DNA from: Candidatus Daviesbacteria bacterium
GTDB lineage: Bacteria > Patescibacteriota > Microgenomatia > Daviesbacterales > UBA10151
Direction of reading: 5' to 3'
Assembly (NCBI GenBank): GCA_028715175.1
Contig: JAQUSJ010000001.1
Span: forward strand, 546,386 to 610,385
Length of the DNA: 64,000 bases
A program made the translations under genes and the position numbers. Position 1 is the stretch's first letter. Each line of letters opens with the position of its first letter. This document shows positions 17,804 through 46,559 of this stretch, piece after piece. The notes below the pieces were generated by a model. It did no database searches and was not told where the DNA came from. It saw nothing but the letters and a program-made list of their open reading frames with translations.

Positions 17804-19459
17804 ATGCGGGTGAAAATTCTGCTTTTATTTTTTGTTTTCTCTTTTCTTTTTAAAACCGACCACTCATTTGACCAGGATTTGGGACGGCATTTAAAACTGG
17901 GTGAAATTATCTGGCAAACTAAAAACGTACCCCCAACCAACCTATTTTCTTATACATATCCTGATTTCCCGTTTATTAACAGCCATTGGTTGTTTGAAGT
18001 CCTGGTATATCTGGGACAACAAACAATCGGTCTGCAAGCAGTTTTGGTTCTAAAAATTCTTACCATACTGTTGGCTGTTTGGTTAGTTCTTGAAACAATC
18101 CCTAAAAAACAATACTTACTGCTGCCTGTTGCCTTTATTTTTTTACATACCCTAAGAGAAAGACCGGAGTTGAGACCGGAGATATTCAGCTTCCTTTTTA
18201 CAGCTCTTACTATTTATCTTTTAGATAAATTTGAAAAAACCAGAACCAAGTTGGTCAGCTTATTGCCGGTAATTCAACTTCTTTGGGTCAATATTCATAT
18301 TTATTTCATCATCGGCATTATCCTGCAAGCAATTTTCTTACTACATCTAAGTTACCAATACTTACGTTTACACCCCAAGGGTGTAAAGCTAAAGTTACTG
18401 GGAATTATTTTTACACTCTCGGTAGCGGTAAGTCTTATCAATCCTAGCGGATTGAAAGGGGTACTAAACCCCTTTCTCTATAGTACAAATTACGGCTATA
18501 CCATTGTTGAAAACCAGACAATGTTCCTCCTGGAAAGCATCAATTTTAGAAACCCTAATTTTTTGTTTGTAAAACTAGCCTCTGCGGCTATTCTTTTATC
18601 AATCGCAGTAGCCTTGTTTAAAAAAAGGCTTTTGATTAAAAATCTTCTTCTTGCCGTTTTTGGGCTAACTCTTGCCTTAGCGAATGTACGTAGCTTCCCT
18701 TATCTTGTATTCATTTCACTACCGGCAATTTTGGAAAATTTCGGTACACCCAAACTCACTCTGTTGCACAAGTTTTTTATTGTAATAACAGTTCCGCTGC
18801 TTTGTTTAGAAAGCTTTTTCTATTTAAACGGGGATTATTATCAATACACCAGCAGCGACAACCGGCCAAGATTAGAATTTAAAGAAAGCGGCAAGAATGC
18901 TTTGGATTTTGTTTTAAAAAATGATTTGCCTCAACCTGTTTTTAACAATTTTGATATCGGAAGCTACATTACATATCGTGGCTGGCCCAAATACCGTGTT
19001 TTTATTGACGGCAGACCGGGGGAGTATCCTAAAGAATTTTTCCAAAGTGTTTATATTCCGATGCAATCGGACCCGCAAAAATTCAAGGAGGTAGAACAAA
19101 AATTTGGCTTTAAGACCATTATTTTTTCCCACACAGATCAAACCCCCTGGGGAAAAGCTTTTTTAGCATCAATAGTCAAAGATCCTGACTGGAAAATAGT
19201 TTATGTAGATGATTTTATGATTATACTAGTAAAAAACAATGTTGTAGCCTCGCAAGGCCTAGCCTTGCAAACTCTTAGTCCGGTTACTTATTCTTTTGAT
19301 TCTTATGTTTCTTATCTCAGACTATCTTTATTCCTGGCTCAAACCGGAAACCCTCAGTCTGCCCAAAAGTTTGCTGAGAAAGCATTATCTCTTTTTCCAA
19401 AAAGCCCTTTGGGCAATGCCCTTTTTGGAATCAGTACCCCAAACAAATTCTTCTGGTAA
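17804..19459 (+). CDS. Hypothetical polytopic membrane protein (possibly GT-C-like) with a TPR-like C-terminus; carries a family-1 palindromic insert
   Basis: About 10 TM helices and a C-terminal AQTGNPQSAQKFAEKALSLFPKSP. The insert encodes LRLHPKGVKL. Confidence 0.55.
   Translation: MRVKILLLFFVFSFLFKTDHSFDQDLGRHLKLGEIIWQTKNVPPTNLFSYTYPDFPFINSHWLFEVLVYLGQQTIGLQAVLVLKILTILLAVWLVLETIPKKQYLLLPVAFIFLHTLRERPELRPEIFSFLFTALTIYLLDKFEKTRTKLVSLLPVIQLLWVNIHIYFIIGIILQAIFLLHLSYQYLRLHPKGVKLKLLGIIFTLSVAVSLINPSGLKGVLNPFLYSTNYGYTIVENQTMFLLESINFRNPNFLFVKLASAAILLSIAVALFKKRLLIKNLLLAVFGLTLALANVRSFPYLVFISLPAILENFGTPKLTLLHKFFIVITVPLLCLESFFYLNGDYYQYTSSDNRPRLEFKESGKNALDFVLKNDLPQPVFNNFDIGSYITYRGWPKYRVFIDGRPGEYPKEFFQSVYIPMQSDPQKFKEVEQKFGFKTIIFSHTDQTPWGKAFLASIVKDPDWKIVYVDDFMIILVKNNVVASQGLALQTLSPVTYSFDSYVSYLRLSLFLAQTGNPQSAQKFAEKALSLFPKSPLGNALFGISTPNKFFW
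18365..18393. repeat. Family-1 in-frame palindromic element, copy 1 (cgTTTACACCCcaaGGGTGTAAagctaaa) inside a membrane-protein gene
   Basis: 8-bp perfect stem / 3-nt loop hairpin; 29/29 identical to 37209..37237; encodes RLHPKGVKLK. Confidence 0.8.
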
Positions 19460-19476
19460 AACTAATGGTGTGTGCG

Positions 19477-19499
19477 TATCCCACCCCAGGGGTGGGATA
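19477..19499. terminator. Perfect 11-bp-stem hairpin (tatcccacccc-a-ggggtgggata) between convergent genes; candidate bidirectional terminator, but no clear U-tract
   Basis: Palindrome read directly; it lies 18 nt after the stop of 17804..19459 and 18 nt before the stop of 19517..20425. Confidence 0.35.
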
Positions 19500-19516
19500 G
19501 GTTGACACCGTATCTT

Positions 19517-20425
19517 TTAAGCTAAGGCTTTTTTGGATTTTAGGAAGAAATAACCTACTACCAGAGCTGTTACAACAGGAGAGAGCCAGGAGGGGATATG
19601 AAAACCAAAACTATCCAAAACCATGATTACTCCCAAAAAGAAAATTGAATACATGGCCCCGTTTTTTAAAAAAATATACTTTTTAATTCTGTCTATATTA
19701 TGAATTGTAATCTCCCTGACTACAAAAGCACCAATCCCGTTGCCTATTAGAATTAAGGGGACTACAAGGGTAAAAGCAAAGGCTCCGATTACTCCATCTA
19801 TGGAAAAAGTAGCATCAATTACTTCCAAATAAAATAGCTTGCTTAAATCAGACCTGCCGGAAGAAAAAAGTTTTTTTTCCTGATCCTGGGCATTTTGCTT
19901 AAACCCATGGGTGATAAAAAAAGCAGTTGAGCCCACCACTGCTCCAAAAGCCATTAAGGGATTTACCTTTAGCGCAAACCAGACAACCGCAGATAAAATT
20001 ACGGAGGTAACTGCATAGAACCAGACGCCCTGAGAAAGCAGGAACCGCTCACCCCTGAGGCCAAAATTCTTAGTTTCCAAAAACAGCCAGTGAAAAAAGA
20101 GAAAAATCAAAAAAGTGCCCCCGCCGATTAGTAAAACAGGCGCCGAACTCTCAATTGCCTCCACCACCACAGGGTCGCTTGAAAAAGTTGCTGACAAAAT
20201 ACCCGCAACCCCTAAATCAGGGTTGGCAATCCAGACTATCAAAAAAGGCAGCAATCCTCTTATCAAAAAAACGGCTATCAGTAAACCCCAAAGAAGAAAC
20301 CATCTTTTAGCCCTCTCTCCCATGGTCGATAAAACCTGGGCATTAATAATGGCATTGTCCACCGAAGAGATAGTTTCAAATAAAACCAGGCCGGAAACTA
20401 TTAAAATTATGGTTAAAATATCCAC
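19517..20425 (-). CDS. TerC/DUF475-family integral membrane protein
   Basis: N-terminal LVLFETISSVDNAIINAQVL matches the TerC-family (E..LS.DNA.V) motif; multiple TM helices. Confidence 0.5.
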   Translation of the reverse strand: MDILTIILIVSGLVLFETISSVDNAIINAQVLSTMGERAKRWFLLWGLLIAVFLIRGLLPFLIVWIANPDLGVAGILSATFSSDPVVVEAIESSAPVLLIGGGTFLIFLFFHWLFLETKNFGLRGERFLLSQGVWFYAVTSVILSAVVWFALKVNPLMAFGAVVGSTAFFITHGFKQNAQDQEKKLFSSGRSDLSKLFYLEVIDATFSIDGVIGAFAFTLVVPLILIGNGIGAFVVREITIHNIDRIKKYIFLKNGAMYSIFFLGVIMVLDSFGFHIPSWLSPVVTALVVGYFFLKSKKALA

Positions 20426-20445
20426 TTGTTTTATTATATACTAAG

Positions 20446-21738
20446 ATGGTGAAATTTAAGATTCCCAAGTCCTTTCCAAAGACTTTTATTATACTTTTAG
20501 TGGTTTTTGCTTTGGGCGTTGGTGTTGGACAAAAATTCATCGGGATCACCCAAAATAAACCTCAGGTAAACTTTGAGAAAAATACCCCGAAGGCTTTTAC
20601 TTCCGAAATCTATGACAAGATTAAAGAAAATTATTGGAATAATATCTCTGACGGCGAACTGCTGGATCTTTTTAGATTATCCATAGACAAAAATGGCGGC
20701 AGTACCGGCGTTGCCAAATTTGAAAACAAAGAAAAATTGCTGGAAACTATCAATAAATCAATCTCAGGCATGGATGAGGATCAAAGAAATAAATTCCTGG
20801 TCTCCGTTGCCGGAGTGGTTTTAAATTCATTAACCCCCCAGGGCAGATCCGGATTGTTTACTGAAAAACAGGAAGCGCAGCTTAAAAATACTGTTTCCAA
20901 TATTAATCCGGAAAAAGATTTATATAAAGATTTAAGGTTAGCCAAAGGGGCCTCTGAGGCAGCAGTACAACAGGCTTATCAAACAGAAGAGGCCAAATTA
21001 GCTAATGATAAATCACCCGAAGCAAAGGAAAAGTTGAAGCAAATTGCTTATGCCAGGGACACTTTAACCCAAAAAGATACCAAACAAAGATATGATCAAA
21101 ATCAAGTAGAACCCACTATTTTTGCAAAAATTGTCCCGCCGGCTACCTTATATGTGGAATTTAAAAAATTCTCGCCCACTTCTTTAGAGGAATTTCAAAA
21201 AGCTTTTGACAGTTATAAAGACCAACAGCTTAACGCCTTAATCTTTGACCTTAGGGGAAATATCGGCGGAGCTATTGATGCCACTGCCTACTTTTTAGGT
21301 TTTTTCCTGGGAAAAGACCAGTACGCGTTTGATTTTTACCATAAAGGCGAATATCTGCCATTTAAGACTGCTGCGGATAAGCTAGCCAGCCTTTCTAAAT
21401 ATAAACAGGTAGTAGTGTTGGTGGACCAAAACTCACAATCTTCTGCCGAGATGATAACAGCGTCTTTGAAAAAATATCATGCGGGAGTGGTGATAGGAGT
21501 TCCTACTAAAGGATGGGGGACGGTTGAGAGGGTTTTCCCCCTGGATAACCAAATCAGCCAGAATGAAAAATACTCACTGTTTTTAGTTCATTCTGTAACT
21601 TTAAGGGATGATAATCAGCCGATTGAGGGCCGGGGAGTAGACCCGGATATCAGCATTAAAGATCCGGCATGGCCGCAAAAACTGCTTTTATATTTTAACA
21701 ATCAAACTTTAGTTGATGCAGTAAAAACAGTGCTATAA
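20446..21738 (+). CDS. S41-family (C-terminal processing) peptidase with an N-terminal TM helix and a degenerate J-like segment
   Basis: LIFDLRGNIGGAID (S41 IDLRnNgGG-like) and SQSSAEMIT (catalytic GxSASA.E). The mid-region KDLYKDLRLAKGASEAAVQQAYQ...AYARDTL is J-domain-like without HPD. Confidence 0.6.
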   Translation: MVKFKIPKSFPKTFIILLVVFALGVGVGQKFIGITQNKPQVNFEKNTPKAFTSEIYDKIKENYWNNISDGELLDLFRLSIDKNGGSTGVAKFENKEKLLETINKSISGMDEDQRNKFLVSVAGVVLNSLTPQGRSGLFTEKQEAQLKNTVSNINPEKDLYKDLRLAKGASEAAVQQAYQTEEAKLANDKSPEAKEKLKQIAYARDTLTQKDTKQRYDQNQVEPTIFAKIVPPATLYVEFKKFSPTSLEEFQKAFDSYKDQQLNALIFDLRGNIGGAIDATAYFLGFFLGKDQYAFDFYHKGEYLPFKTAADKLASLSKYKQVVVLVDQNSQSSAEMITASLKKYHAGVVIGVPTKGWGTVERVFPLDNQISQNEKYSLFLVHSVTLRDDNQPIEGRGVDPDISIKDPAWPQKLLLYFNNQTLVDAVKTVL

Positions 21739-21745
21739 TAGTATC

Positions 21746-22144
21746 TTGGAGGTGATAGAAATGGCAGGTTATATCATCAATATTGAAGAAAAAACGCTCC
21801 AGAATGACTATTTTCGTGAAGTTTTATTTACTGCCCCCCATAGCCAGCTGGTGGTGATGAGTCTTTTGCCCGGTGAAGAAATTGGCATGGAAGTGCATGA
21901 AACTGTTGACCAGTTTTTGCGGATCGAAGAAGGGGAGGGAAAAGCTATTCTAAACGGAGAAGAACATCCCATCTCAGATGGTTTTGCAATTGTCGTGCCG
22001 GCAGGGACACAGCACAATGTCGTTAATACGTCTGCGGATAAAAAGCTTAAGCTGTATACAATTTACAGCCCGGCTGAGCACAGGGATAAAACTGTTCACA
22101 AAACTAAACAGGAAGCTCTTGCAGATACAGAAGACCATCCGTAA
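21746..22144 (+). CDS. Cupin-domain protein
   Basis: SLLPGEEIGMEVHETVDQFLRIEEGEGKAILNGEEHPISDGFAIVVPAGTQHNVVN shows the two cupin motifs. Confidence 0.65.
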   Translation: MEVIEMAGYIINIEEKTLQNDYFREVLFTAPHSQLVVMSLLPGEEIGMEVHETVDQFLRIEEGEGKAILNGEEHPISDGFAIVVPAGTQHNVVNTSADKKLKLYTIYSPAEHRDKTVHKTKQEALADTEDHP

Positions 22145-22150
22145 TATACT

Positions 22151-22837
22151 ATGTTCGGGTCATTGCTGCTACTTTTGACGCTCGTTTTAAATTCGTGGAC
22201 CTGGCAACTGGTTAAACAGAATCTGTTTTTAGCCTTTATTCTTTTAACAATAACAATATCCCTTTTTGCTTTAACATTTGCCGCAGAAAAATCTTTACGG
22301 AAGATTGCTTTTTTAGTACTTTTGTTAACTTTTTGCGTAGGGTCTTTTTACTTTTTACAGGGAAATTTTGACAGATCGCTAAGAGAAAAAAATCCGACTG
22401 AAGTAAGTATTGCTCTAAAACGGCATGGTTATTTCGCTGAGGGGTTAGGGAAGTTGTTTACCAATAAATTCAGTTTACAGTTTTTTAGCAACTGGTACTA
22501 TCCGATTACCAACTATTCAAGAAACATTTCTTATAGCATTGATCCAAATCTGTATTTTTTTATGAGTCACCCCAGAGAAAAATCAGGTATTGATGAATTC
22601 GGGAAATATTCACCGCTGCTGTTGCCTGTTTTTTTACTGGGGCTATTTACTCATTTTCTATCTTTGAGCAAATACAAAACATTAACCGCCTATTTAATTA
22701 CAGCAATAATCATAACCGGTTTTGCAACTCCATATTATAAATTAGGACCGGTTTTTTTATTTCCTTATCTTAATCTGATAATAGTACTGGGAGGAATAAA
22801 TTTCTTAAATTTTGTAAGAAAAAAATATGAAACTTAA
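22151..22837 (+). CDS. Hypothetical membrane protein
   Basis: Multiple TM helices; overlaps the next gene by 11 nt. Confidence 0.5.
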   Translation: MFGSLLLLLTLVLNSWTWQLVKQNLFLAFILLTITISLFALTFAAEKSLRKIAFLVLLLTFCVGSFYFLQGNFDRSLREKNPTEVSIALKRHGYFAEGLGKLFTNKFSLQFFSNWYYPITNYSRNISYSIDPNLYFFMSHPREKSGIDEFGKYSPLLLPVFLLGLFTHFLSLSKYKTLTAYLITAIIITGFATPYYKLGPVFLFPYLNLIIVLGGINFLNFVRKKYET

Positions 22838-24464
22838 AGAAATCATGGCAGTTACTCTTATTATAGCAATGACGGCTTTAGTCAGGTTAACGACTTTGGA
22901 TCAAGTACCGGCAGGACTGTATGTAGACGAGGCCTCAATAGGCTACAATGCTTTTTCGATCGTTGAAACAGGTAAAGATGAGTACGGCAAACCTTTCCCG
23001 CTGTTTTTTAGGTCTTTTGCCACTTTTCAGGCCCCTCTTTATACATATCTAACAACCATCCCAATTTTGATTTTTGGATTAAATATATTTTCGGTACGGC
23101 TTGTTTCCGCTCTGTCGGGAATTTTACTTATTTTGATAACCTACTTTTTTGTAAAAAAATTGCAAACTAAAAACAGCACAAAACTTGCTTTTTTATCCAT
23201 TGTTGTTTTGGGATTTTCTCCCTGGGCAATATTTCAAAGCCGTGTCGCCGTTGAAGCAAATTTGGCTCTTACATTACTTATCCTCAGTTTGTATATATTC
23301 TTATTGTCACTTAAAAAGATTATTTATTTTGTTCCGGCTTGCATAACTTTAGCTATATCCAGTTATGCATATCACGGCCAGAGAATACTGGTCTTTGTTT
23401 TTTTGGCCTTTATTCTGCTTTGGTTTAATAAATATTTACGAGATCACAAAAGATTTGTAGCGTTGGGCGTTGGGTTTTTTCTTTTGATTTTAATACCGCA
23501 ACTATTGCTTTCCACCACCTCCGGATCTTTACAACGATTCAGCACGCAAGGATATATGCAACAGGAAGTTTTTGAAAAATTTGGAGCCGGCTTCAAGCAA
23601 ATTCCATTAGCTGGAAGATATTTATACATAACCAGAAAATTTGTTGCTCAGTATATTTCTTCTTATTCTCCACGGAGTTTATTTTTTGAACCGGAAAATC
23701 AGCTTTTCCGGTCAATGTCTAACTTAAGTACTTTTTATATTTGGATGATCATACCTTTTTTTCTAGGAATAAAACAGATCTGGGAAAATAAAAACGACCC
23801 GGTTATCAGGCTTATTTTAGCTTGTATTGTTTTAGGTCCGCTACCTGCCACACTGACAGGAGACCCATTCTATACCTTAAGAATGCTGCCAATGCTCTGG
23901 GGGTTAAGTATTTTAATCGCCTTTGGACTTTTTTATATTTTTAAAAAGATGCATTTAAAATTTTTTAAGTTAGGATTAGGTTTGTTGCTTATTGCGCTGT
24001 CTTGTTTTATGTTCTATACCTCATACTTTATCCTGTTTAAGAAAGAAAGATCATCTGCTTTTGGGCAACCATATTTAAAATTTGCCCAACAAACCGAACA
24101 AATGAAAGATAAAAAATTCCTTTTGGATTCTGAAATGTATGATGCGCCATACATTTTAATGGCTTTCTACAAAAAACTTGATCCTTTCAAGATGCAGCTG
24201 CAAACTGATCCGGTTTTGCTAAAGGATTATTATACAAATACCGGCTTTAACAAATACCGGGTAGTTGAAAATGTGGCTGTAAAACCGCTGAATTGGTCTT
24301 TAGATCCTTGTATAGATCAAATCATAGTGGGGGATGCAGGAACATTATCAGAAAGTCAGGCAAATGAACATTTCTTTACGCTGGTTTCAGAATATAAAGA
24401 CCTGGAAGGAAAAATAATTTTATGGGCATATCAAACTAACCCGGTAAAAGCCTGTAAAAAATAA
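22827..24464 (+). CDS. GT-C fold glycosyltransferase, family 39/83-like (ArnT/PMT-type)
   Basis: First-loop DE motif in LYVDEASIGYNAFSIVETGKDEYGKPFPLFFRSF, followed by 10+ TM helices. Confidence 0.6.
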   Translation: MKLKEIMAVTLIIAMTALVRLTTLDQVPAGLYVDEASIGYNAFSIVETGKDEYGKPFPLFFRSFATFQAPLYTYLTTIPILIFGLNIFSVRLVSALSGILLILITYFFVKKLQTKNSTKLAFLSIVVLGFSPWAIFQSRVAVEANLALTLLILSLYIFLLSLKKIIYFVPACITLAISSYAYHGQRILVFVFLAFILLWFNKYLRDHKRFVALGVGFFLLILIPQLLLSTTSGSLQRFSTQGYMQQEVFEKFGAGFKQIPLAGRYLYITRKFVAQYISSYSPRSLFFEPENQLFRSMSNLSTFYIWMIIPFFLGIKQIWENKNDPVIRLILACIVLGPLPATLTGDPFYTLRMLPMLWGLSILIAFGLFYIFKKMHLKFFKLGLGLLLIALSCFMFYTSYFILFKKERSSAFGQPYLKFAQQTEQMKDKKFLLDSEMYDAPYILMAFYKKLDPFKMQLQTDPVLLKDYYTNTGFNKYRVVENVAVKPLNWSLDPCIDQIIVGDAGTLSESQANEHFFTLVSEYKDLEGKIILWAYQTNPVKACKK

Positions 24465-24478
24465 AGTCTTAAGAATAA

Positions 24479-24903: not shown

Positions 24904-24925
24904 ATGGTTAATAACAAGCTAATTT

Positions 24926-26221: not shown

Positions 26222-26223
26222 TA

Positions 26224-30489: not shown

Positions 30490-30511
30490 ACTTCATCCGC
30501 CTCTGGCGGAT

Positions 30512-30889: not shown

Positions 30890-32674
30890 TTATTTAACTG
30901 TAACGCTTTTAGCTATGTTTCTGGGTTTGTCTACATTATGACCTAATTCCACAGCCATATAATAAGCCAGAAGCTGCAAGGGGATTATATTCATGATGGC
31001 AGAGGTTTCACCGGTATCCGGAACAGGAATATAGTGGTCAAAGACAGCACAGGCAGCGGGAGAAATGCCGATTACTGTTGCACCTCTTGCCTTAACCTGA
31101 TTGACTGCATTTATCACGTCATCCCTGGCCAAATCCTCCGATACCACCGCAATCACCGGCACGCCTTTTTCCATCAAGGTTATTGCATAGTGCTTTAAAT
31201 CTCCTGCGGGGATACCATGAGCATGTATGTATGATCCTTCTATTATTTTAACCATTCCTTCACTGATAATATTAAAATTTTGATATTTGCCCAGCAGAAA
31301 GATATCTTTATGTTTAGCTAAAATTTTTGCCAGATTCTTAATCGTTTCGTGGTTTGCATTTGTATTCAAGTATTTATCCATCTCCTCAACTAACTTTTTT
31401 AAGTTAACCCTTCCTTCTTTGCTTTTTCCGCTTGCCACTTTTGCTATCAGATATCCCCAGGCAATTTGTGAGGTAAAAACTTTAGTGGACATCACACAAA
31501 TCTCCGGTCCTGCGTGCGCAGAATACGGGTGATCGGAAATACGCGCCATAGTAGAACCCGGCATATTAACATACGAAGCAATCTTAACACCTTTCTTTTT
31601 GGCAATTTCTAAAACTTCCAAAACATCTGCTGTTTCACCGGATTGTGAAGGAGCAATTATCAAGTCATCCTTGGTTAATAAATCATAGTAGTCATACATA
31701 TCAGCGCCTATGACGCTTCTTGCGTTAACTTGAGCAAATACCCGAAGGTAAAAAGCGACCTCCGATGCGGCGATGCCGGCTGTACCAGACCCGATTGTGT
31801 AGACATTTTTGGCTTCTTTTAATGTTTTGATGAAATCCTCGTATAACTTAAAGTCTTGATTTAAAACCTGACTGACAACATAAGGGCTCTCATGAATTTC
31901 CTTAAGCATGAAATGATCATAACCTTCTTTATCAACTTTGCTGTTTTTAAAATCAATCTTCTCTAAATGATAAGGCAAATCTTTGTTGGACTTGATATCC
32001 CTAAGTTGCAGCTTGCCATTCCAGGTTATCATCTGCCCGTTTTCTACAACTAGTATTCTGTTTACATAAGGAGCAAACGATAGCGTGTCGGAAGAGAAAA
32101 ATATCTCTTCACCATTAACTCCCACCACCAAAGGGGAACCGTTTCGGCAAGCTATAATCCGGCCCGCTTTTGTCACAAGAATAATGGTATTTCGTCCCTC
32201 CAATTCTAAAAACGCCAGCCTCACCGCTTCCTTTAAATCTACTTTCCCACTCGTCAAGTGGGAAGCTGTTTTTAATTTATCTTCTATTAGTCGAACAATC
32301 ACTTCTGTGTCTGTTTCTGTTTGAAATTTATAGCCTTTTTTTTGCAAAGCAGATTTCAACTTCTGATAATTTTCCACAATGCCGTTTTGCGCAAGGACAA
32401 AAGATTTGTCTGAAGAAAAATGCGGATGGGCGTTTGTGACATTTACCCCACCATGGGTAGCCCAGCGGGTATGACCAATCCCTGCATTGGATCTCGGCAG
32501 ATTAATGAGTTGGTTCAAGTCGCCAATCGCTCCAACTTTTTTGTCAATCTTGATCTGGTCTGCCACCACTGCAATACCCCAGGAATCGTAACCCCGATAT
32601 TCCAGCCTTTTTAAACCTTCCAGAATAACTTCAGAAGCATTTTTTGATCCAATATAGCCAAATATTCCACACAT
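30890..32674 (-). CDS. glmS: Glutamine--fructose-6-phosphate aminotransferase
   Basis: N-terminal MCGIFGYIG (Cys1 nucleophile), two SIS domains, 594 aa. It contains a family-2 palindromic insert encoding ASHLTSGK. Confidence 0.9.
   Translation of the reverse strand: MCGIFGYIGSKNASEVILEGLKRLEYRGYDSWGIAVVADQIKIDKKVGAIGDLNQLINLPRSNAGIGHTRWATHGGVNVTNAHPHFSSDKSFVLAQNGIVENYQKLKSALQKKGYKFQTETDTEVIVRLIEDKLKTASHLTSGKVDLKEAVRLAFLELEGRNTIILVTKAGRIIACRNGSPLVVGVNGEEIFFSSDTLSFAPYVNRILVVENGQMITWNGKLQLRDIKSNKDLPYHLEKIDFKNSKVDKEGYDHFMLKEIHESPYVVSQVLNQDFKLYEDFIKTLKEAKNVYTIGSGTAGIAASEVAFYLRVFAQVNARSVIGADMYDYYDLLTKDDLIIAPSQSGETADVLEVLEIAKKKGVKIASYVNMPGSTMARISDHPYSAHAGPEICVMSTKVFTSQIAWGYLIAKVASGKSKEGRVNLKKLVEEMDKYLNTNANHETIKNLAKILAKHKDIFLLGKYQNFNIISEGMVKIIEGSYIHAHGIPAGDLKHYAITLMEKGVPVIAVVSEDLARDDVINAVNQVKARGATVIGISPAACAVFDHYIPVPDTGETSAIMNIIPLQLLAYYMAVELGHNVDKPRNIAKSVTVK
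32244..32267. repeat. Family-2 in-frame palindromic element (TTCCCACT-cgtca-AGTGGGAA-gct) inside glmS
   Basis: 8-bp stem / 5-nt loop; encodes ASHLTSGK on the minus strand, at a site where GlmS homologs are about 5 residues shorter. Confidence 0.8.
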
Positions 32675-35544: not shown

Positions 35545-36147
35545 ATGGACAATCTCAACCTTAAAACCAATGTGTGGTTTGTTGCTGCCTGGTTTGCAGC
35601 AGCAACTACCGCTTTAATATTTTCACTTACTTTTACCTTGTACCTCTCAAACGCTAAAATAATTAATCCCAATCCGCCGGCTGGCGGACAAAGCTTTAAG
35701 TTATATGCAGCTTTACCTAAGTCTGAAACATTTATTACAGACGAAATAAACTATGCTGACGGCAGGGCAAAAATAATTGAGGATTTTTTGAAAAATTACA
35801 AATCACCCTTATCCGATTATAGCCATATTTTTATCCAGGTTGCCGATAAATACCAGTTAGACTACCGGTTATTGCCTTCAATCGCCATGCAGGAATCAAA
35901 CGGCGGGAAAAAAGTTATTAATCACTCCTATAATCCATTCGGATACGGCATATATGGCAGTATGGTGCTCAAATTTAATTCATGGGAAGAGGCGATTGAA
36001 AGGGTTGGCAAAGCCCTGCGCGAGGACTACTTAAATCAGGGCTTGAAAACACCATACCAGATAATGACCAAATACACACCTCCGTCTCTGCTCGTGGACG
36101 GAAGTTGGGCTAAAGGCGTTTTTACCTTCATGGAAGAACTGCGATAA
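35545..36147 (+). CDS. Membrane-anchored glucosaminidase-domain (GH73/FlgJ-like) protein, paralog 1
   Basis: LLPSIAMQESNGGKK...NPFGYGIYG...YLNQGLKTPYQIMTKYTP. Confidence 0.6.
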   Translation: MDNLNLKTNVWFVAAWFAAATTALIFSLTFTLYLSNAKIINPNPPAGGQSFKLYAALPKSETFITDEINYADGRAKIIEDFLKNYKSPLSDYSHIFIQVADKYQLDYRLLPSIAMQESNGGKKVINHSYNPFGYGIYGSMVLKFNSWEEAIERVGKALREDYLNQGLKTPYQIMTKYTPPSLLVDGSWAKGVFTFMEELR

Positions 36148-36872: not shown

Positions 36873-36899
36873 ACTAGTGACTAGTGACTGGTGACTAGT
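36873..36899. repeat. Tandem TGACTAG / ACTAGT (SpeI-site) triple repeat: actagtgactagtgactggtgactagt
   Basis: Read directly; intergenic, immediately upstream of murT. Confidence 0.5.
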
Positions 36900-36911
36900 T
36901 ATAATGCCCAT

Positions 36912-38270
36912 ATGAAACTCATTCTAGCTATTCTTCTAGGTAAACTAATCCTTTTTCTCACGCGTAATTTTAAAATCGGAGGAGGCTCAGCTGCTCCGGG
37001 TTTATATGCCCTGTCTATTGAACCGGATCTGGTTGCAAAATTAGCTGCTAAAATCCCCAAAAATGTAGTGATAACCGGAACTAACGGCAAAACTACTACT
37101 GCCAAAATGCTGGCCCATTTTGCGAAAGAAACAGGGCTTAAAGTTATCAGAAACCATACCGGTTCCAATCTTGAACGCGGTATCGCCTCAGCTTTTATTC
37201 AAAACCTCCGTTTACACCCCAAGGGTGTAAAGCTAAACCATGATATTGGCATTTGGGAACTGGATGAAGCAGCTTTTAATGCCGTTGCCCCAAAACTGCA
37301 ACCTGACATTGTTGTATTTTTGAATGTCTTCCGTGATCAACTTGACCGTTATGGTGAAATTGATACTGTAATCAAAAACTGGTACCAGGCGTTAAAAAAA
37401 CTCTCTTCGGAAACTGCGGTTTTAGTTAACGGCGACGATGCCAACATATTAAAACTGGCTGCCTGTTTTAGAGGTAAAGTTCAAACATTCGGGGTTCAAA
37501 ATTGCAAAATCGCGGGGGAGGAAATTGAGCGTCAAAAAGAACAGGAAAACCTTGATTTTGAAGCAAAAAATGTCAAAACAAGCGGATTAACCGGCAGTTT
37601 ATTTCAATTAACTATTAACAATGAACTATTAACTGTTAACCTACCTCTTCCCGGTATCTACCATATCTATGATTTTTTGGCTGCCTTTACTACAGGAACA
37701 ATATTAAATATAGATCCTGATAAAATGGTTTTGTCCTTGAAAACCTATTCACCTGCCTTTGGCAGGGTCGAGAAATTCCATTTAAACCCTACGTTTCATC
37801 GTACTCCTACCTCCGAGGTAGAATACATGGGGTATATTTTCCTGATCAAAAATCCGGCCGGAGCTACCCAGGTCTTTAAAACTATTGCGCCAAATATCAA
37901 ACCCGGGGACAGAATCCTTCTGGCATTAAATGACAACATTGCGGACGGTACAGACGTATCATGGATCTGGGATGCGAATTTCGAATCACTTCGAAATTCG
38001 TCGAATCTTTCTGAACGAGCGCAGTCGAGGGACTATACAATAATTACTTCTGGAATCAGAGCAAATGATCTGGCGCTCCGCTTGAAATATGCCAATTTTA
38101 ATCCTAAAGAAATAGTTGTAGAACCGGACCTGAAACAGGCCCTGAAACAAGCTGGAGTGGGCTTAAAAGGCAAATTGTTCATCCTTCCCACATATACTGC
38201 CATGCTGAAACTGCAATCAATCCTGACTAAAGCCAGCATCAAGAAACATTACTGGGAGGAGGATAATTAG
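36912..38270 (+). CDS. murT: Mur-ligase-family protein, MurT-like (lipid II isoglutaminyl synthase ligase subunit)
   Basis: VVITGTNGKTTTAKML is the Mur ligase P-loop; the C-terminal DUF1727-like region is followed by a GatD-like partner gene. The table ORF uses GTG 36891; ATG 36912 (MKLILAIL) is preferred. It contains a family-1 palindromic insert encoding LRLHPKGVKL. Confidence 0.65.
   Translation: MKLILAILLGKLILFLTRNFKIGGGSAAPGLYALSIEPDLVAKLAAKIPKNVVITGTNGKTTTAKMLAHFAKETGLKVIRNHTGSNLERGIASAFIQNLRLHPKGVKLNHDIGIWELDEAAFNAVAPKLQPDIVVFLNVFRDQLDRYGEIDTVIKNWYQALKKLSSETAVLVNGDDANILKLAACFRGKVQTFGVQNCKIAGEEIERQKEQENLDFEAKNVKTSGLTGSLFQLTINNELLTVNLPLPGIYHIYDFLAAFTTGTILNIDPDKMVLSLKTYSPAFGRVEKFHLNPTFHRTPTSEVEYMGYIFLIKNPAGATQVFKTIAPNIKPGDRILLALNDNIADGTDVSWIWDANFESLRNSSNLSERAQSRDYTIITSGIRANDLALRLKYANFNPKEIVVEPDLKQALKQAGVGLKGKLFILPTYTAMLKLQSILTKASIKKHYWEEDN
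37209..37237. repeat. Family-1 in-frame palindromic element, copy 2, inside murT
   Basis: Identical 29-mer; encodes RLHPKGVKLN. Confidence 0.8.
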
Positions 38271-40024: not shown

Positions 40025-40078
40025 CACGCCGCAATTATAAATTGTAGCTCGTATAAATTCAACTTCTATCTGTTTTTG

Positions 40079-40161: not shown

Positions 40162-40248
40162 TATTCCAAGCATATTTTACCAGTTAATTTGACATATATC
40201 TATTAAGTTGTAAAATATGCTCGTTTAATTGTTTAATTAATAATTAAT

Positions 40249-40569: not shown

Positions 40570-40594
40570 GTAAAAAGGTGTAAAATATATACCT

Positions 40595-41194: not shown

Positions 41195-41199
41195 TTCTG

Positions 41200-41272
41200 T
41201 GGGCGGTACAGGGATCGAACCTGTGACCTCATTCACGTCAAGAATGCGCTCTACCAGCTGAGCTAACCACCC
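41200..41272 (-). tRNA. tRNA-Val (anticodon GAC)
   Basis: Reverse complement GGGTGGT TA GCTC AGCTGGTA GAGC G CATTC TTGACGT GAATG AGGTC ACAGG TTCGATC CCTGT ACCGCCC A. Confidence 0.75.
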
Positions 41273-41331
41273 GAACTTTCAAATTCTATCACCTCTTTAC
41301 ATAACCCACAAGCAAACAGTAATATACGAGT

Positions 41332-42558
41332 ATGGATCAAAAGAAATTAAAGGATCACAAACAAATCGGTCAGGAGCTTGAACTTTTTTTTACAGACGAT
41401 ATTGCTCCCGGCGCTCCATTCTGGCTTCCAAAAGGAATGGTTATTTTTAAAGAGCTGGAAAAATATATCAGAGAACTAACTGAAAAAGCAGGATATCTGG
41501 AAACTTCAACACCAATTATGGTCAAAAGCGAAATATTTAAGCAATCCGGACACTGGGAAAAATTCGGTGAGCATAATATGTATAACCTTCAGCTTTCTGA
41601 CGAAACAGATGATTCTAAACCAGTTAGCTACACCTTAAAACCAATGAACTGCCCCGAATCAACTATCCTCTATAGATTCAGGCCCAGAAGCTACCGTGAG
41701 CTACCTTTAAGGCTTTCTGAAATCGGCAGGTTGCACAGAAGAGAAAAATCAGGGGAGGTCAACGGATTACTACGGGTCCGCCAACTGACTATGGATGATG
41801 CCCACATTTATGCTACAGAAGACCAAATACCGGACGAGGTGGGAAGTATTTTAGATATGATGATTGAATTCTACAAAAGTTTTAATTTTGAATACGAATT
41901 CAGGTTGGCAACCAGACCGGATATAAGAGCAGGAACTGATGAAAATTGGGGGAAAGCTGAAAAAGCTCTGGAGAATGTTTTGAAGGAAAAAGGATTAAAA
42001 GCCGGAGATAAAAAGGGTGACGGTGCATTTTATGGGCCTAAGATCGATGTACATATTAAAGATGCTCAAGGAAGAGATTGGCAACTGGCCACCGTCCAGC
42101 TTGACTTTCATCAACCTGAAGCATTTAAACTGGAATATACCGATGAAAAAGGGAATAAGCCGCGCCCGGTCATGATCCACAGAGCTATCTTTGGTTCTTT
42201 TGAAAGGTTTATAGCTATTTTAACCGAACATTTCCAGGGGGTTTTCCCAACCTGGCTCTCTCCAATCCAGGTACAAATTATACCCATTGCAGATCGGCAT
42301 CAAAAATATAGTCAAATTGTACTCGAACAATTAAAGGATGCAAATATCAGGGCAGAGCTTGATAACAGGCAAGAAACTATGCAAGCAAAAATTAGGGATG
42401 CCCAAACACAAAAAATTCCATATATGATTATCGTGGGCGACCGCGAAGAAAAAGAAAAGAAAATCGCTGTTAGGACAAAAATGGGGCAGGACTTAGGTGC
42501 ATTGGGGGTTGAAGAATTTTTAACAAGAATTAATTCGGAGATTGAATCTAAGGTATAA
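41332..42558 (+). CDS. thrS: Threonine--tRNA ligase, catalytic core + anticodon-binding domain only (no N-terminal TGS/editing domains)
   Basis: The start aligns to the class II core: FWLPKGMVIFKELEKYIRE... motifs 2/3 (RVRQLTMDDAHIY, FYGPKID, HRAIFGSFERF). 408 aa against ~640 aa in canonical bacteria. Confidence 0.8.
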   Translation: MDQKKLKDHKQIGQELELFFTDDIAPGAPFWLPKGMVIFKELEKYIRELTEKAGYLETSTPIMVKSEIFKQSGHWEKFGEHNMYNLQLSDETDDSKPVSYTLKPMNCPESTILYRFRPRSYRELPLRLSEIGRLHRREKSGEVNGLLRVRQLTMDDAHIYATEDQIPDEVGSILDMMIEFYKSFNFEYEFRLATRPDIRAGTDENWGKAEKALENVLKEKGLKAGDKKGDGAFYGPKIDVHIKDAQGRDWQLATVQLDFHQPEAFKLEYTDEKGNKPRPVMIHRAIFGSFERFIAILTEHFQGVFPTWLSPIQVQIIPIADRHQKYSQIVLEQLKDANIRAELDNRQETMQAKIRDAQTQKIPYMIIVGDREEKEKKIAVRTKMGQDLGALGVEEFLTRINSEIESKV

Positions 42559-42603
42559 TCTGTGTTAATATCTACAAAAGCAACTATGAAGGAGGCTCGT
42601 TAA

Positions 42604-43155
42604 CTGGCCAAATTTTATCGTCTTAATGAGCATATCCAGGCTCCTAAGCTTAGGGTAATAGATTCCAAGGGCGAACAGCTGGGAATCTTAACTAAGACTG
42701 AGGCTTTGGAAAAAGCTAAGGCGTTAGGACAGGATGTGATAGAAATTGCTCCCAATGCACAGCCGCCTGTTGTCAAAATAGCTGATTTTCAGAAATTCAG
42801 GTACGAAGAGAATAAGAAGGATAGGGCATCAAAAAAGGGTACATCTGCAGGGGGATTGAAAGAATTGTGGCTGTCTCCACGGATTGCGGAACATGACCTT
42901 AAAGTCAGACTAACGAGAACTGAAGAGTTCTTAAAGGAAGGTTATAAGGTAAAGTTAACGGTTAAATTTAAGGGCAGGGAAATGGCTCACCCCGAACTTG
43001 GACGCCAGGTTTTACAAGAAGCTCTAACGCTTTTAGGGGATAATGTTGCAGTAGATAAGGAAGCTAAGTTTGAAGGAAGAAAATTATCAATGATCGTAGG
43101 AAAAGGAAGAAAGGATAAAAATGCCGAAGCAGAAAACAAACAAATCAATATTTAA
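42604..43155 (+). CDS. infC: Translation initiation factor IF-3 with a probable non-AUG (CUG) start
   Basis: The upstream in-frame extension of the table ORF (which starts at TTG 42706) encodes AKFYRLNEHIQAPKLRVIDSKGEQLGILTKTEALEKAKALGQDVIEIAPNAQPPVVKI, homologous to the IF3 N-domain. The in-frame stop is at 42601..42603 and SD gaaggagg at 42588..42595. The first possible codon is CTG 42604; the next in-frame non-AUG candidate is ATC 42634. Confidence 0.7.
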   Translation: MAKFYRLNEHIQAPKLRVIDSKGEQLGILTKTEALEKAKALGQDVIEIAPNAQPPVVKIADFQKFRYEENKKDRASKKGTSAGGLKELWLSPRIAEHDLKVRLTRTEEFLKEGYKVKLTVKFKGREMAHPELGRQVLQEALTLLGDNVAVDKEAKFEGRKLSMIVGKGRKDKNAEAENKQINI

Positions 43156-43318
43156 GAGAATCAAAATTACCTCAACAGGTAAGATTTTAAGAAGACACCA
43201 GCTTGGAGCCGGACATCTCAAACGGAACAAAAGCAAGGGAGCGCTCAACCGGCAAAAGAAAACAAGTGAATATTTTAAAGGAGAAGGCAAACATCTTAGA
43301 AAGATAATAGGACTCTAA
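43121..43318 (+). CDS. rpmI: 50S ribosomal protein L35
   Basis: MPKQKTNKSIFKRIKITSTGKILRRHQLGAGHLK... Confidence 0.8.
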   Translation: MPKQKTNKSIFKRIKITSTGKILRRHQLGAGHLKRNKSKGALNRQKKTSEYFKGEGKHLRKIIGL

Positions 43319-43453
43319 TGGGTAGAGAAACAAGGAATTTTAGACAAACCGGAAGATCAAGAGCAGGCAATTTATCGGCAAGAAATTATGCCGGGATTAA
43401 CCGTACAGGATATTGGGGAAAAATAATTAATTTTTTTAAGAAAGGCGGTTACT

Positions 43454-43798
43454 ATGGCAAGAGTTAAAAGAGGAGTTACATCGCATAGAAAACACAAAAA
43501 GGTATTGAAGTTAACTCGCGGCCACAGAGGCGGCAGAAGCAAGCTCGTGAGGGAGGCAAAATCTTCTTTACTTCATGCAGGAGAATACGCTTTTGCCGGC
43601 AGAAAGCTTAGAAAGCGGGACATGAGAAGACTTTGGATTACTCAAATGGGAATCGCCCTAAAAAACGAAGGGCTTTCGTATTCCAAATTCATGGCTTCTT
43701 TAAAAGCCAAAAAAATCTTGCTTGACCGAAAAATGCTGGCAGATTTGGCAGTTAACAATATTGATGACTTTAAAAAAATCATCTCCGAAGTAAAATAA
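43454..43798 (+). CDS. rplT: 50S ribosomal protein L20
   Basis: MARVKRGVTSHRKHKKVLKLTRGHRGGRSKL... Confidence 0.85.
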   Translation: MARVKRGVTSHRKHKKVLKLTRGHRGGRSKLVREAKSSLLHAGEYAFAGRKLRKRDMRRLWITQMGIALKNEGLSYSKFMASLKAKKILLDRKMLADLAVNNIDDFKKIISEVK

Positions 43799-43816
43799 TG
43801 TGCTAGAATTAAGCTC

Positions 43817-44857
43817 ATGCAGGATAAAATTTCCCAGATTAAAAAAGAGTATTTAGAAAAAATTGGTAAAGCTTCAAGTTTAAAAGAGCTGGACAGTCTT
43901 TTTTTGGCGCTTTTTGGAAAAAAAGGCGAGATTGCGCTTTTGCCAAAAGAGTTCCCCAAACTTTCAGATACGGAGCGGAGGAAAATCGGACCTGCGTTTA
44001 ATGCTGTCAAACAGGAGCTGGAAAAAGCAATAGAAAAAAAAAGGGAAGAGGTTAGAGAAGAGTCTTACAAAGCACTGGAAAATGAAAAACTTACTCTCCA
44101 AGGCGTCCCCCTGGAGGCTAGGAAGGGACATCTGCATCTGGCTACCCAATTTAAAAAAGAAATTATTGACCTGTTCAACAAATTAGGCTTTTATCAATTT
44201 GATGCTCCACACGTAGAATGGGATAAATATAATTTTGAATACCTGAATATCCCCAAGGATCACCCTTCCCGCGATATGTGGGATACGCTGTATGTAGATA
44301 CCTCCCGGCTGGAAGTTGAACCCGGGCAAATGCTGCTGCGCACCCATACTTCTAACTTTTGGCCGAGATTAATGGAGAAAGGCAAAGCTCCGATTAGAGC
44401 GATGAGTTTTGACCGCTGTTTTAGATACGAAGCAATTGATGCAAGACATTCACACACCTTTAACCAGTTTGAGGTGGCAGTTGTCGGCGAAAAGATAACT
44501 ATGGCTAATTTAAAATTCCTATCTGATTATCTTCTCAAAGCAATTTTGGGCAAAGAGGCCAAGTCTAGATTCAGGCCAAAATATTACCCATTTGTTGAAC
44601 CAGGAGTTGGAATAGATTGCCTGTGTGTATTTTGTCATGGACGCGGTTGTAAAATCTGTTCCGGAACAGGCTGGTTTGAAATAGCAGGAGCAGGCATGAT
44701 TCATCCGAATGTTTTTAAGTCTACAGACCTGGATCCTAAAAAATATACCGGTTTAGCTTGGGGTTTTGGACCTGACAGAATGCTAATGATAAAACATGAG
44801 ATAGAAGATATCAGATATTTCCTGGAAGGAGACCTAAAGTTCCTGCAAGAGTATTAA
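43817..44857 (+). CDS. pheS: Phenylalanine--tRNA ligase alpha subunit
   Basis: Class II motifs: FRPKYYPFVEPG, FNQFE, GAGMIHPNV...GLAWGFGPDRM. Confidence 0.9.
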   Translation: MQDKISQIKKEYLEKIGKASSLKELDSLFLALFGKKGEIALLPKEFPKLSDTERRKIGPAFNAVKQELEKAIEKKREEVREESYKALENEKLTLQGVPLEARKGHLHLATQFKKEIIDLFNKLGFYQFDAPHVEWDKYNFEYLNIPKDHPSRDMWDTLYVDTSRLEVEPGQMLLRTHTSNFWPRLMEKGKAPIRAMSFDRCFRYEAIDARHSHTFNQFEVAVVGEKITMANLKFLSDYLLKAILGKEAKSRFRPKYYPFVEPGVGIDCLCVFCHGRGCKICSGTGWFEIAGAGMIHPNVFKSTDLDPKKYTGLAWGFGPDRMLMIKHEIEDIRYFLEGDLKFLQEY

Positions 44858-44861
44858 TCTT

Positions 44862-46559
44862 ATGAGAGTTTCACTTTCCTGGCTCAAAGAATTAGTTGAT
44901 TATAAACTATCTCCTCAAGAACTGGCAGATAAATTGTCGCTTATTTCCATTGGAATAAAAAATCAAACACAAGACTCTCTGGAATTAGATTTAACATACA
45001 ATCGGGGTGACTTACTTTCCATGCGCGGAGTAGCCAGAGAAGTAGCTGCTGTAACAGGCTCTAAGCTATTATTTTCAAACCTCAAACCACCTACTTATCC
45101 TTGTTTGCCTGAAACCCCGGTACAAGTTGACAATAAAAGTCTTTGTCCGGTTTATTGTGTAGCTAAAATTGAAGGCATTAAGATTGAGCCATCGTCCGAT
45201 CAATGGGTAAAAAAATTAACGGATTGCGGTGTCAGATCTGTCAATAATATTGCTGATGTCACTAATTTGATCATGCTTGAGTATGGCCAACCCATGCATG
45301 CCTTTGATGCATCTCAAGTCAAAGACGGGATGCTGATTGTGAGAACTGCCAGGCAGGGTGAAAAAATTATGACACTTGATGGAAAGGATCGAATTTTAGA
45401 TGAAACTGACTTATTAATTGCGGATTCAGAAAAAGCTCTGGCGCTTGCCGGAGTAATGGGAGGAAAAGATTCTGAAATTACGCAAACTTCAACAACTATT
45501 CTCCTGGAGGCAGCCATTTTTGATCCTGTTTCCAATAGGAAAAGTTCTAAAAAACATGGCCTTTATTCTGAAAGCACAAAAAGATTCCAGCATGGCCTAA
45601 CTAAAACTAACTTGCTCCAGGCTCTTTCTGCTGCCATAAAAATGTATGAAGGTTTGGGTGGAAAACTGACTGCCATTACACTTACGGGAAACCTTCAGGA
45701 TCAAGTAAAAACCATCCAACTGACCCAGCAAAAGATCAATTCATTAATCGGGGTAGACATTCCATCAGGGGAGGTAGAATCATCCCTCAAAAAACTAGGA
45801 TTTAGACTAGAAGCAAAACACCTCGAAGGTGAAAAAATGCGATTACACCTTCGAGGTGGAATGGTTTGGGAAATAACAGTGCCTTATTGGAGACTGGATA
45901 TAGAAATTGAGGAGGATCTGATAGAAGAAGTAGCCAGAATGTATGGGTATGAAAAAATCCCCCCAAAAGCGCTTGAAGGGAATCTTCCGGAGAAAATCGA
46001 TCAAAGTTTTCCCAATTTTATTTATGATTTGAAAAAATCCTTAAAAGAGGCAGGTTTAACAGAAGTACAAACATATTCTTTTTATTCAACAAAAGTAATT
46101 GAAATCCGCCAGCTGGCGGAGAAAACTGAAAACTTAATTAAGATTGCTAATCCTATTTCATCTGAAACCGAGTATTTAAGGGACAATCTTTGGCCAAATC
46201 TGTTAGAAGTAGCTGCCAAAAATATCAGGAACGGAATAAAAGATATAGCTATTTTCGAGGTAGGCAAAGTGTATGCGCCACAAAAAGGTGATTTACCAAA
46301 AGAAACCTACCGATTGGCGATTGCTTTAGTAAACGGCACAGATAATCCCATCCAGGAGCTTAGTCAAATCTCCCAAAGTTTAGGATTACACCCCAAGGGT
46401 GTAATCGGGGGTTTACAGCTAAACCCAAGAGAATATTTTCATCCAACAAGGTATACAGATGATATAGCCGAAATTCACCCAAGATTTGTGAATAAATTCG
46501 GGATTGATCAAAGAGTGGCTGTTTTGGAAATAGAATTAAATCCTCTAACGAGGCCCTGA
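44862..46559 (+). CDS. pheT: Phenylalanine--tRNA ligase beta subunit (short, 565 aa), with two in-frame palindromic inserts
   Basis: N-terminal MRVSLSWLKELVDY; B3/4 and B5 regions present. Inserts at 45819..45858 (HLEGEKMRLHLRGG) and 46386..46423 (LHPKGVIGGLQLN). Confidence 0.85.
   Translation: MRVSLSWLKELVDYKLSPQELADKLSLISIGIKNQTQDSLELDLTYNRGDLLSMRGVAREVAAVTGSKLLFSNLKPPTYPCLPETPVQVDNKSLCPVYCVAKIEGIKIEPSSDQWVKKLTDCGVRSVNNIADVTNLIMLEYGQPMHAFDASQVKDGMLIVRTARQGEKIMTLDGKDRILDETDLLIADSEKALALAGVMGGKDSEITQTSTTILLEAAIFDPVSNRKSSKKHGLYSESTKRFQHGLTKTNLLQALSAAIKMYEGLGGKLTAITLTGNLQDQVKTIQLTQQKINSLIGVDIPSGEVESSLKKLGFRLEAKHLEGEKMRLHLRGGMVWEITVPYWRLDIEIEEDLIEEVARMYGYEKIPPKALEGNLPEKIDQSFPNFIYDLKKSLKEAGLTEVQTYSFYSTKVIEIRQLAEKTENLIKIANPISSETEYLRDNLWPNLLEVAAKNIRNGIKDIAIFEVGKVYAPQKGDLPKETYRLAIALVNGTDNPIQELSQISQSLGLHPKGVIGGLQLNPREYFHPTRYTDDIAEIHPRFVNKFGIDQRVAVLEIELNPLTRP
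45819..45858. repeat. Family-3 hairpin element (cacctcgaaggtg-N14-caccttcgaggtg), in-frame inside pheT
   Basis: 13-bp perfect stem; encodes HLEGEKMRLHLRGG. Confidence 0.6.
46386..46423. repeat. Family-1 in-frame palindromic element, copy 3 (variant with a 12-nt tcgggggtttac internal duplication), inside pheT
   Basis: ttacaccccaagggtgtaa + tcgggggtttac + agctaaa; the extra 12 nt keep the frame (LHPKGVIGGLQLN). Confidence 0.75.

Follow-up and report, generated by a model that had tools for sequence, protein, structure and literature searches.

The window analysed here is a stretch of 64,000 nucleotides (nt) of DNA from a metagenome-assembled genome (MAG) of Candidatus Daviesbacteria (Candidate Phyla Radiation (CPR), Microgenomates). 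It contains three copies of a short palindrome, called family 1 in what follows, which resembles a repetitive extragenic palindrome (REP) and lies within three unrelated genes. The host genes and the three copies are:

17804..19459, + strand: host gene 1, a polytopic membrane protein of 551 amino acids (aa), kept in Daviesbacteria.
18356..18397, + strand: family-1 REP-like element, copy 1; core hairpin at 18367-18387, TTTACACCC-CAA-GGGTGTAAA; encodes (Y)LRLHPKGVKLK.
36891..38270, + strand: host gene 2, murT (lipid II isoglutaminyl synthase subunit), with MurT_C and Mur_ligase_M domains.
37200..37237, + strand: family-1 REP-like element, copy 2, in murT; core hairpin at 37211-37231; encodes (N)LRLHPKGVKLN.
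44862..46559, + strand: host gene 3, pheT in a short form of 565 aa, with B3_4, B5 and CLM domains.
46384..46426, + strand: copy 3, assigned to family-1 subfamily B, near the C-terminus of pheT; encodes GLHPKGVIGGLQLN.

The 29-mer CGTTTACACCCCAAGGGTGTAAAGCTAAA occurs with the same letters at 18365-18393 and 37209-37237, and the likeness between copies 1 and 2 reaches 38 nt. Its core, TTACACCCCAAGGGTGTAA, is found again at 46386-46404. When up to two mismatches are allowed, the window has three matches to this core where 0.01 would be expected, and not one of 100 shuffles gave as many. All three copies are on the + strand, within + strand open reading frames (ORFs) and in frame, and are translated as RLHPKGVKLK (membrane protein), RLHPKGVKLN (MurT) and GLHPKGVIGGLQLN (PheT). 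The initial annotation had reported these positions and sequences, and that each copy keeps the reading frame of its host; both are confirmed. The perfect stems, each with a 3-nt loop, are longer than the 8 bp given there: copies 1 and 2 have 9 bp each, and copy 3 has 10. DNA folding gave -7.8 kcal/mol for copy 1 (z = -2.4), z = -3.6 for copy 2 and -14.5 kcal/mol for copy 3 (z = -5.2). Family-1 elements measure 29-45 nt, with flanks of the type ..TTACGT / AGCTAA.. or GA..TCGG, and are divided into two REP subfamilies (..GTAAAGCTAAA versus GATTACACCC..TCGGRGGTTTAC).

Copy 3 had been described as a variant expanded by 12 nt. It is in fact a unit of two hairpins, GATTACACCCCAAGGGTGTAATC followed by GGGTTTACAGCTAAACCC, at 46384-46406 (10-bp stem) and 46409-46426 (7-bp stem). 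Because of this make-up, and because an element with 41 of 45 identical positions is found immediately upstream of a RAYT-like gene in another Daviesbacteria genome (L001; see below), its sequence is better seen as a separate two-hairpin subfamily (B) than as an expanded copy. Target-site duplications were also considered. Copy 1 lies between short direct repeats (CTAAGTTAC / CTAAAGTTAC), and copy 3 is flanked by CAAG, but we do not claim a duplication since the outer arms of the element are themselves partly palindromic and there is no virgin empty site for comparison. An Rfam search of the window gave only tRNAs and no family at the positions of the palindromes. The tRNA genes number 12 in the 64 kb (10726-49530), 11 of them on the - strand, and explain the direct-repeat families D1, D2, D4 and D7.

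To place the hairpin in a wider context, the pattern TTACACCC-NNN-GGGTGTAA was scanned against one genome per species (596 Gb). This gave 118 loci, where about 140 are expected by chance for 16 fixed bases. The total therefore carries no meaning in itself; the informative features are the clustering of matches within genomes and their adjacency to genes for REP-associated tyrosine transposases (RAYTs). The matches cluster in several Daviesbacteria and Microgenomates, in one Omnitrophota MAG, in one Saccharibacteria MAG and in Clostridium species, and related MAGs hold several copies per genome. In a syntenic Daviesbacteria-like genome (L202), a gene for a 223-aa Y1_Tnp protein is located 8 kb from the ortholog of the membrane-protein gene. 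The protein scores 40.4 bits against Pfam PF01797 (Y1_Tnp), above the cut-off of 23, and its gene carries family-1-like hairpins on both sides. A tblastn analysis of all fetched loci with this protein identified seven more homologs, each adjoining the hairpin; these seven loci had been fetched by the hairpin pattern alone. The hosts include Daviesbacteria, Roizmanbacteria, Saccharibacteria and Berkelbacteria. At the eight loci the hairpin lies about 10-60 nt from one or both ends of the RAYT-like ORF (both sides in most), and the HxH and RY(I/V)HLNP motifs are kept in 8/8 homologs. A hairpin at both ends of the gene is the arrangement that defines a RAYT gene with its REPs.

The window copies can be connected to particular genes of this group. 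Copies 1 and 2 have GGTGTAAAGCTA(AAGTTA) in common with the flanks of type-A RAYT genes, and the right end of copy 1, GTGTAAAGCTAAAGTTA, matches the type-A flank in L202. Daviesbacteria JACPDA01 (L001 and L205; JACPDA010000004.1) has two RAYT-like paralogs that are 49% identical, and their flanking hairpins match the two family-1 subfamilies of the window. The type-A gene adjoins the same gene, PMT_2, in two genomes, as expected of a vertically inherited single-copy RAYT.

We consider it likely that the three copies are REP-type elements, that is, the short hairpin repeats of a REP/RAYT system of Candidatus Daviesbacteria. The initial annotation had presented them as multi-copy, hairpin-forming and apparently selfish in-frame elements in unrelated housekeeping genes, and this is supported. 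It had also likened them to Rickettsia palindromic elements (RPEs). The comparison holds for their behaviour, but the family is better given as REP/RAYT, with the hairpin flanking Y1/HUH genes.

Two groups of loci retrieved in the course of this work deserve separate mention. L012, L014, L016, L110, L115 and L202 (CAZKCV01, CAYQAW01) come from 'uncultured Gammaproteobacteria' MAGs (binchicken co-assemblies) that encode Daviesbacteria-type proteins. They have the same gene order and the same palindromes, with a membrane protein 72% and a PheT 62% identical to those of the window, and their taxonomic labels are probably wrong. L008, L021, L022, L044, L051, L065, L080, L098 and L108 are marine group III / Thermoplasmatota archaea. 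In several of these archaeal MAGs, TTACACCC-GTA/GCA-GGGTGTAA occurs at a fixed distance upstream of a conserved, TATA-like ..CCTTTATATC... This palindrome looks like a conserved promoter operator and is probably unrelated to the bacterial repeats.

The host proteins were then considered individually. A Pfam search with the 551-aa membrane protein matched no family. MurT and PheT of the window are 100% identical to NCBI proteins encoded on a contig of 743,708 nt. The annotated start of murT probably corresponds to M8, at 36912. The MurT insert adds 5 aa relative to S. pneumoniae MurT (6FQB) in a structure-based alignment, the loop of the latter being shorter and unrelated at this point. In an AlphaFold2 (AF2) model of the window MurT, which is of moderate quality (mean predicted local distance difference test (pLDDT) 66.5), the insert falls within a coil (99-113) that links a helix to a strand, and its pLDDT is below 50. 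Mapping onto structures, recommended in the initial annotation as a check for surface loops, thus places the MurT insert in a predicted loop. Its flanks are strongly conserved: ERGIASTLI[...]DLGIWELDEAAFN. The PheT of the window aligns with residues ~159-597 of the ~795-aa bacterial PheT (2RHQ) and, from this alignment, appears to be without the N-terminal tRNA-binding domain and the C-terminal domain; the PheT orthologs listed are all ~495-591 aa.

The window has palindromes of other kinds as well: in all, 74 GC-containing perfect hairpins were counted, where shuffles had about 38. Those that concern the sites discussed below, or that form families, are:

45816..45861, + strand: family-1b doublet in the B5 domain of pheT, AAACACCTCGAAGGTGAAA + TTACACCTTCGAGGTGGAA; encodes KHLEGEKMRLHLRGG.
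32244..32264, - strand: family-2 palindrome TTCCCACTTGACGAGTGGGAA in glmS; encodes ASHLTSG, a clean 7-aa insertion.
52117..52137, - strand: family-2 palindrome in the glycosyltransferase gene 51258-53063; encodes NLASHLTSGN.
54728..54748, - strand: family-2 palindrome in ORF 53986-54990, with the loop flipped and the flanks unchanged.
30495-30511, 35673-35688, 46105-46120, 50539-50554 and ~52450-52470: family 3, TCCGCC-N3/4-GGCGGA.
19477-19499: hairpin TATCCCACCCCAGGGGTGGGATA with a 10-bp stem, between convergent ORFs.

The pheT doublet, of the TTACACCT-TCGA type, has hairpin loops in opposite orientations, and the pair makes a larger hairpin like that of a REPIN (a REP doublet forming a hairpin). 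It folds with -16.5 kcal/mol (z = -7.5) and corresponds to an insertion of 13 aa relative to S. haemolyticus PheT. Family 2, TTCCCAC-N5-GTGGGAA, has three copies in the window, all in frame, which read SHLTSG or, with the loop flipped, SHSSSG. GTAG is present on the 3' side of two of the three (coding orientation), and in other Daviesbacteria this family sits at the membrane-protein and PheT B5 sites. Family 3 in its strict form, TCCGCC-N4-GGCGGA, has four window copies. Two long perfect hairpins occur once each in the window: CGAATTTCGAATCACTTCGAAATTCG at 37975-38000, in a low-confidence segment of MurT, and CACCTGGGAGG..CCTCCCAGGTG at 51595-51628, in the glycosyltransferase. A 37-nt direct repeat ATWATCACGCAATAATCGCGCAACTTATCGCGCATTA of three ATCRCGCAA-like units (16642-16678 and 17747-17783) brackets the ORF at 16666-17781 (- strand). 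The ortholog of this ORF has a Fic domain in related loci, and similar repeats occur in the same places in L201 and L202; the repeat may be an operator or regulatory site.

We aligned about 120 orthologs of each of the three host proteins (n = 120 for MurT) and obtained ortholog DNA by exact-protein look-ups. A metagenome scan based on the MurT alignment (patterns TGTNGKTT and WELDEAAF) matched Mur ligases generally and added one useful relative (L120, 52%). In all three proteins the insert sits between highly conserved flanks and its content varies widely. LHPKGVKLN may be replaced by LHPWGVKLN, which is the same palindrome with its loop reverse-complemented. LHLRGV and LHLEGV are the two orientations of TTACACCTTCGAGGTGTAA, and SHLTSG and SHSSSG those of family 2. 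SHPWGG, found at the MurT site of other Daviesbacteria, is an in-frame reading of TCCCACCCCWGGGGTGGGA, the palindrome present at 19477-19499 in the window. Further orthologs have other repeats or a short loop without an insert; at least 10 membrane-protein orthologs do not have the ~14-aa segment. Since both orientations are found at the same sites, what is conserved is the palindromic DNA and not the peptide.

The initial annotation took the extra residues to be lineage-specific insertions and named LHPKGVKL-like peptides at the same positions in distant orthologs as the result that would speak for ancestral protein sequence instead. The extra loop sequence is there in MurT. Daviesbacteria orthologs at 57-75% identity do carry LHPKGVKL-like peptides at positions matching the window; the result named there is thus obtained in part, and these are not simple lineage-specific insertions. 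Elsewhere among the orthologs, however, the site holds the flipped form or an unrelated palindrome or is empty, and there is no insert in the solved homolog. For these reasons the host sites are hypervariable loops, recurrent hot spots rather than ancestral protein sequence.

The closest available genome, Daviesbacteria STB_119, was compared over about 50 kb of syntenic DNA. Its MurT is 84%, its PheT 88% (pheT DNA about 88%) and its membrane protein 81% identical to those of the window. A scan for islands of low identity revealed that palindromes make up a large share of the in-frame indels and replacements. STB_119 has different palindromes at two of the three family-1 sites: the MurT site carries another hairpin, which encodes CVNLCVNLKGCRLN, and the C-terminal PheT site carries a double HL(R)G hairpin between sharply conserved flanks. 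In glmS, STB_119 has a clean empty site where the window has the family-2 hairpin. The glycosyltransferase site is occupied by family 2 in the window, by an unrelated hairpin with a 12-bp stem in STB_119 and by family 1 in a Microgenomates locus (L096). The family-3 copies at ~50539 and ~52450 are 12-nt insertions that are not in STB_119, and at the pheT copy (46105) STB_119 has a diverged stretch that likewise lacks the palindrome. Between close genomes, one and the same site can thus be occupied, empty or filled by another palindrome. On neighbour-joining trees of the host proteins, occupant changes (Fitch) numbered 31 for MurT, against 32 with shuffled tips, and 51 for the membrane protein, against 57; this near-zero phylogenetic signal is consistent with repeated occupation rather than vertical descent. 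We also considered whether a single family fills every site of a genome; as a rule this was rejected, since STB_119 and others mix families between sites.

Location inside genes varies with the host. All three family-1 copies of the window are intragenic, as are 12 of the 21 Daviesbacteria-like copies of the hairpin core, compared with 4/30 in Omnitrophota, 1/20 in Saccharibacteria and 0/13 in Clostridium. Living inside genes is therefore a trait of the Daviesbacteria-like lineage and not of the element, the core being rarely intragenic elsewhere. In relatives, some copies are found where the DNA is apparently non-coding, with no more than short ORFs across it. One of the three frames in each orientation has a stop, which leaves four open combinations of frame and orientation. 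The LHP(K/G)GV reading is nevertheless used by 11 of the 12 intragenic Daviesbacteria-like copies, some of which are at orthologous sites and hence not independent, and by 3/3 copies in the window. This strong frame bias looks like a selection filter that favours a tolerated, turn-like peptide.

These observations can be combined in a mechanism. A single-copy HUH/Y1 tyrosine transposase (RAYT-like, ~215-225 aa) would recognise the ACACCC-N-GGGTGT hairpin in single-stranded DNA and would cut and rejoin the DNA beside it, which would allow the hairpin to spread, to be excised or to be exchanged for another palindrome. In a compact genome, copies that are in frame in permissive surface loops and are read as turn-like LHPKGV would escape purifying selection. 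Because only such tolerated copies would escape, the loops of MurT, PheT, the membrane protein, GlmS and the glycosyltransferase would be refilled by different families. We infer here that the RAYT catalyses hairpin movement, that its substrate is single-stranded DNA, that the source genome itself retains the enzyme, and that the hot spots result from target preference or from selection.

A number of points weigh against assignment to a REP/RAYT system. The L202 protein scores only 50.9 bits with the NCBIfam model REP_Tyr_transpos (REP-associated tyrosine transposase), for which the cut-off is 80, and tblastn found no RAYT homolog within the 64-kb window. Family-1 elements carry neither the GTAG nor the CGTC tag of most described REP families, and three copies per 64 kb is a low density next to classical REP-rich genomes. 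No clean empty family-1 site was found in a close relative; insert-free forms are seen only in distant orthologs, at the protein level. The test for phylogenetic signal given above is a crude one, made with single-protein neighbour-joining trees and crude state classes. Finally, the hairpin codons of the membrane-protein gene are identical in three genomes, where third-position identity is only 0.68 and 0.48, and the pheT B5 doublet with its surroundings (45776-45870) is 100% identical to STB_119 over ~95 nt, compared with 88% for the whole gene. Such conservation could result from recent re-insertion, transfer or conversion, or from selection at the nucleotide level.

The last two observations are among those that favour a different explanation, in which the hairpins are kept for their nucleic-acid structure (in mRNA processing or stability, in pausing translation where domains meet, or in binding a nucleoid protein or an uptake protein) and recurrence at the same site in orthologs reflects selection on structure, not repeated insertion. 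It also draws on the conservation of the stem core across CPR phyla and on the fact that the differing occupants of one site still form hairpins. We nevertheless judge it improbable: many orthologs have no insert at all, unrelated families are exchanged without phylogenetic pattern, the core lies outside genes in other lineages and next to RAYT genes, and no Rfam family matches. It does not exclude a REP/RAYT origin, since a function could be a secondary addition to mobility. Palindromes might, alternatively, arise and be homogenised without a transposase, with hairpin-templated replication errors (template switching) perfecting stems and flipping loops, and with ectopic gene conversion or repair spreading the product. 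Loops are indeed at times flipped with their asymmetric flanks retained (family 2, 54728 versus 32244; family 1, L095 versus the window), for which one hairpin-templated inversion could be the source, and hybrid ACGT/AGCT flank combinations exist. This would leave unexplained both the two-sided association of the hairpin with intact RAYT-like genes at eight loci in several phyla and the complete 21-nt hairpin cleanly inserted at a formerly empty glmS site. The stems of 8-10 bp are, in addition, short for homologous recombination, and we regard this explanation as very improbable.

That LHPKGVKL is an ancestral functional protein sequence whose palindromy is incidental can be considered effectively refuted, even though orthologs down to ~57% identity encode LHPKGV-like peptides at matching positions. 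Repeat DNA is shared by three unrelated proteins, and the reverse-complement forms give different peptides at the same sites. Many orthologs and the solved homologs do not have the segment, which the model shows as a coil of low confidence. Further copies are found beside RAYT genes and in DNA that is apparently non-coding. DNA-uptake sequences and restriction-site palindromes were weighed on paper only; the copy density is low for uptake sequences.

A bolder form of the REP/RAYT interpretation is that the Daviesbacteria system has moved from intergenic space into protein loops, where a conserved hairpin-specific transposase, with a hairpin core common to several CPR phyla, swaps palindromic cassettes at fixed permissive loops of essential enzymes. 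As a whole, this seems to us rather unlikely. If it were true, REPs would systematically generate diversity in loops and might, secondarily, play a structural part in DNA or RNA.

Assignment to a REP/RAYT system would extend this biology to the CPR and would show how such elements live in a genome almost without intergenic space, in frame within surface loops of essential proteins. It also matters for annotation: inserts of this kind would explain many differences in length and low-confidence loops among CPR proteins, and could mislead alignment, phylogeny and structure prediction. From the natural reuse of loops by different families one could read off which positions of MurT, PheT and GlmS tolerate insertions. 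The hairpin core common to RAYT loci of several CPR phyla, for its part, offers a concrete substrate for studying RAYT specificity.

There is an ample literature on REP/RAYT systems and REPINs (Nunvar 2010; Bertels & Rainey 2011, PMC3116915; Bertels 2017, PMC5581495; Messing 2012, PMC3479197). The Daviesbacteria elements resemble them in being dispersed, multi-copy imperfect palindromes of 20-45 nt, in flanking a Y1/HUH transposase gene with HUH and Tyr motifs, in including doublets that fold into a larger hairpin (45816-45861) and in being represented by several families in one genome. They differ in lying in frame inside genes, as all window copies and most Daviesbacteria-like copies do, in the absence of the GTAG/CGTC tag, in matching the NCBIfam RAYT model below its cut-off only, and in a RAYT-like protein of ~220 aa, which is longer than E. 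coli RayT. Our literature search for CPR/Patescibacteria found no description of REP/RAYT systems or of in-frame palindromes.

In-frame palindromes were initially thought to be rarely reported outside Rickettsiales. They have in fact been reported previously by Di Nocera et al. (2013, PMC3733652), whose examples of in-frame intragenic REPs include some in Opitutus terrae and others in the tRNA synthetase genes of a number of species, and who equated RPE-4 and RPE-6 of R. conorii with intragenic REPs. As here, genes whose function is known, among them those for aminoacyl-tRNA synthetases, contain REP units or dimers in frame, which add ~10-30 residues (PMC3733652). Those families, however, are GTAG/CGTC-tagged and only a minority of their copies are intragenic (PMC3733652), whereas here the majority are (12/21 and 3/3), and here different families reuse the same loops.

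The RPEs of Rickettsia (Ogata et al. 2000), a bacterium with a small genome, are likewise selfish palindromes; they are inserted in frame into housekeeping proteins, which tolerate them in segments exposed at the surface. Their length, ~100-150 nt in most families (RPE-1, for example), is much greater than that of the elements described here, and to our knowledge RPEs have not been established as RAYT-associated. Behaviour (in-frame insertion) is the sole feature shared; the two are set apart by length and host, not by sequence comparison. No RAYT link is known for the small dispersed repeats of Nostocales or for organelle palindromes. These repeats and the organelle palindromic 'GC clusters' and coding palindromes (for example, PMC6649704) are very short hairpins that can be located in coding sequence and appear to replace one another. 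Their hosts are different, and they serve as an analogy only. Three features go beyond what is known: most copies are in frame, different families occupy the same protein loops again and again, and the hairpin core is conserved beside RAYT genes in several CPR phyla.

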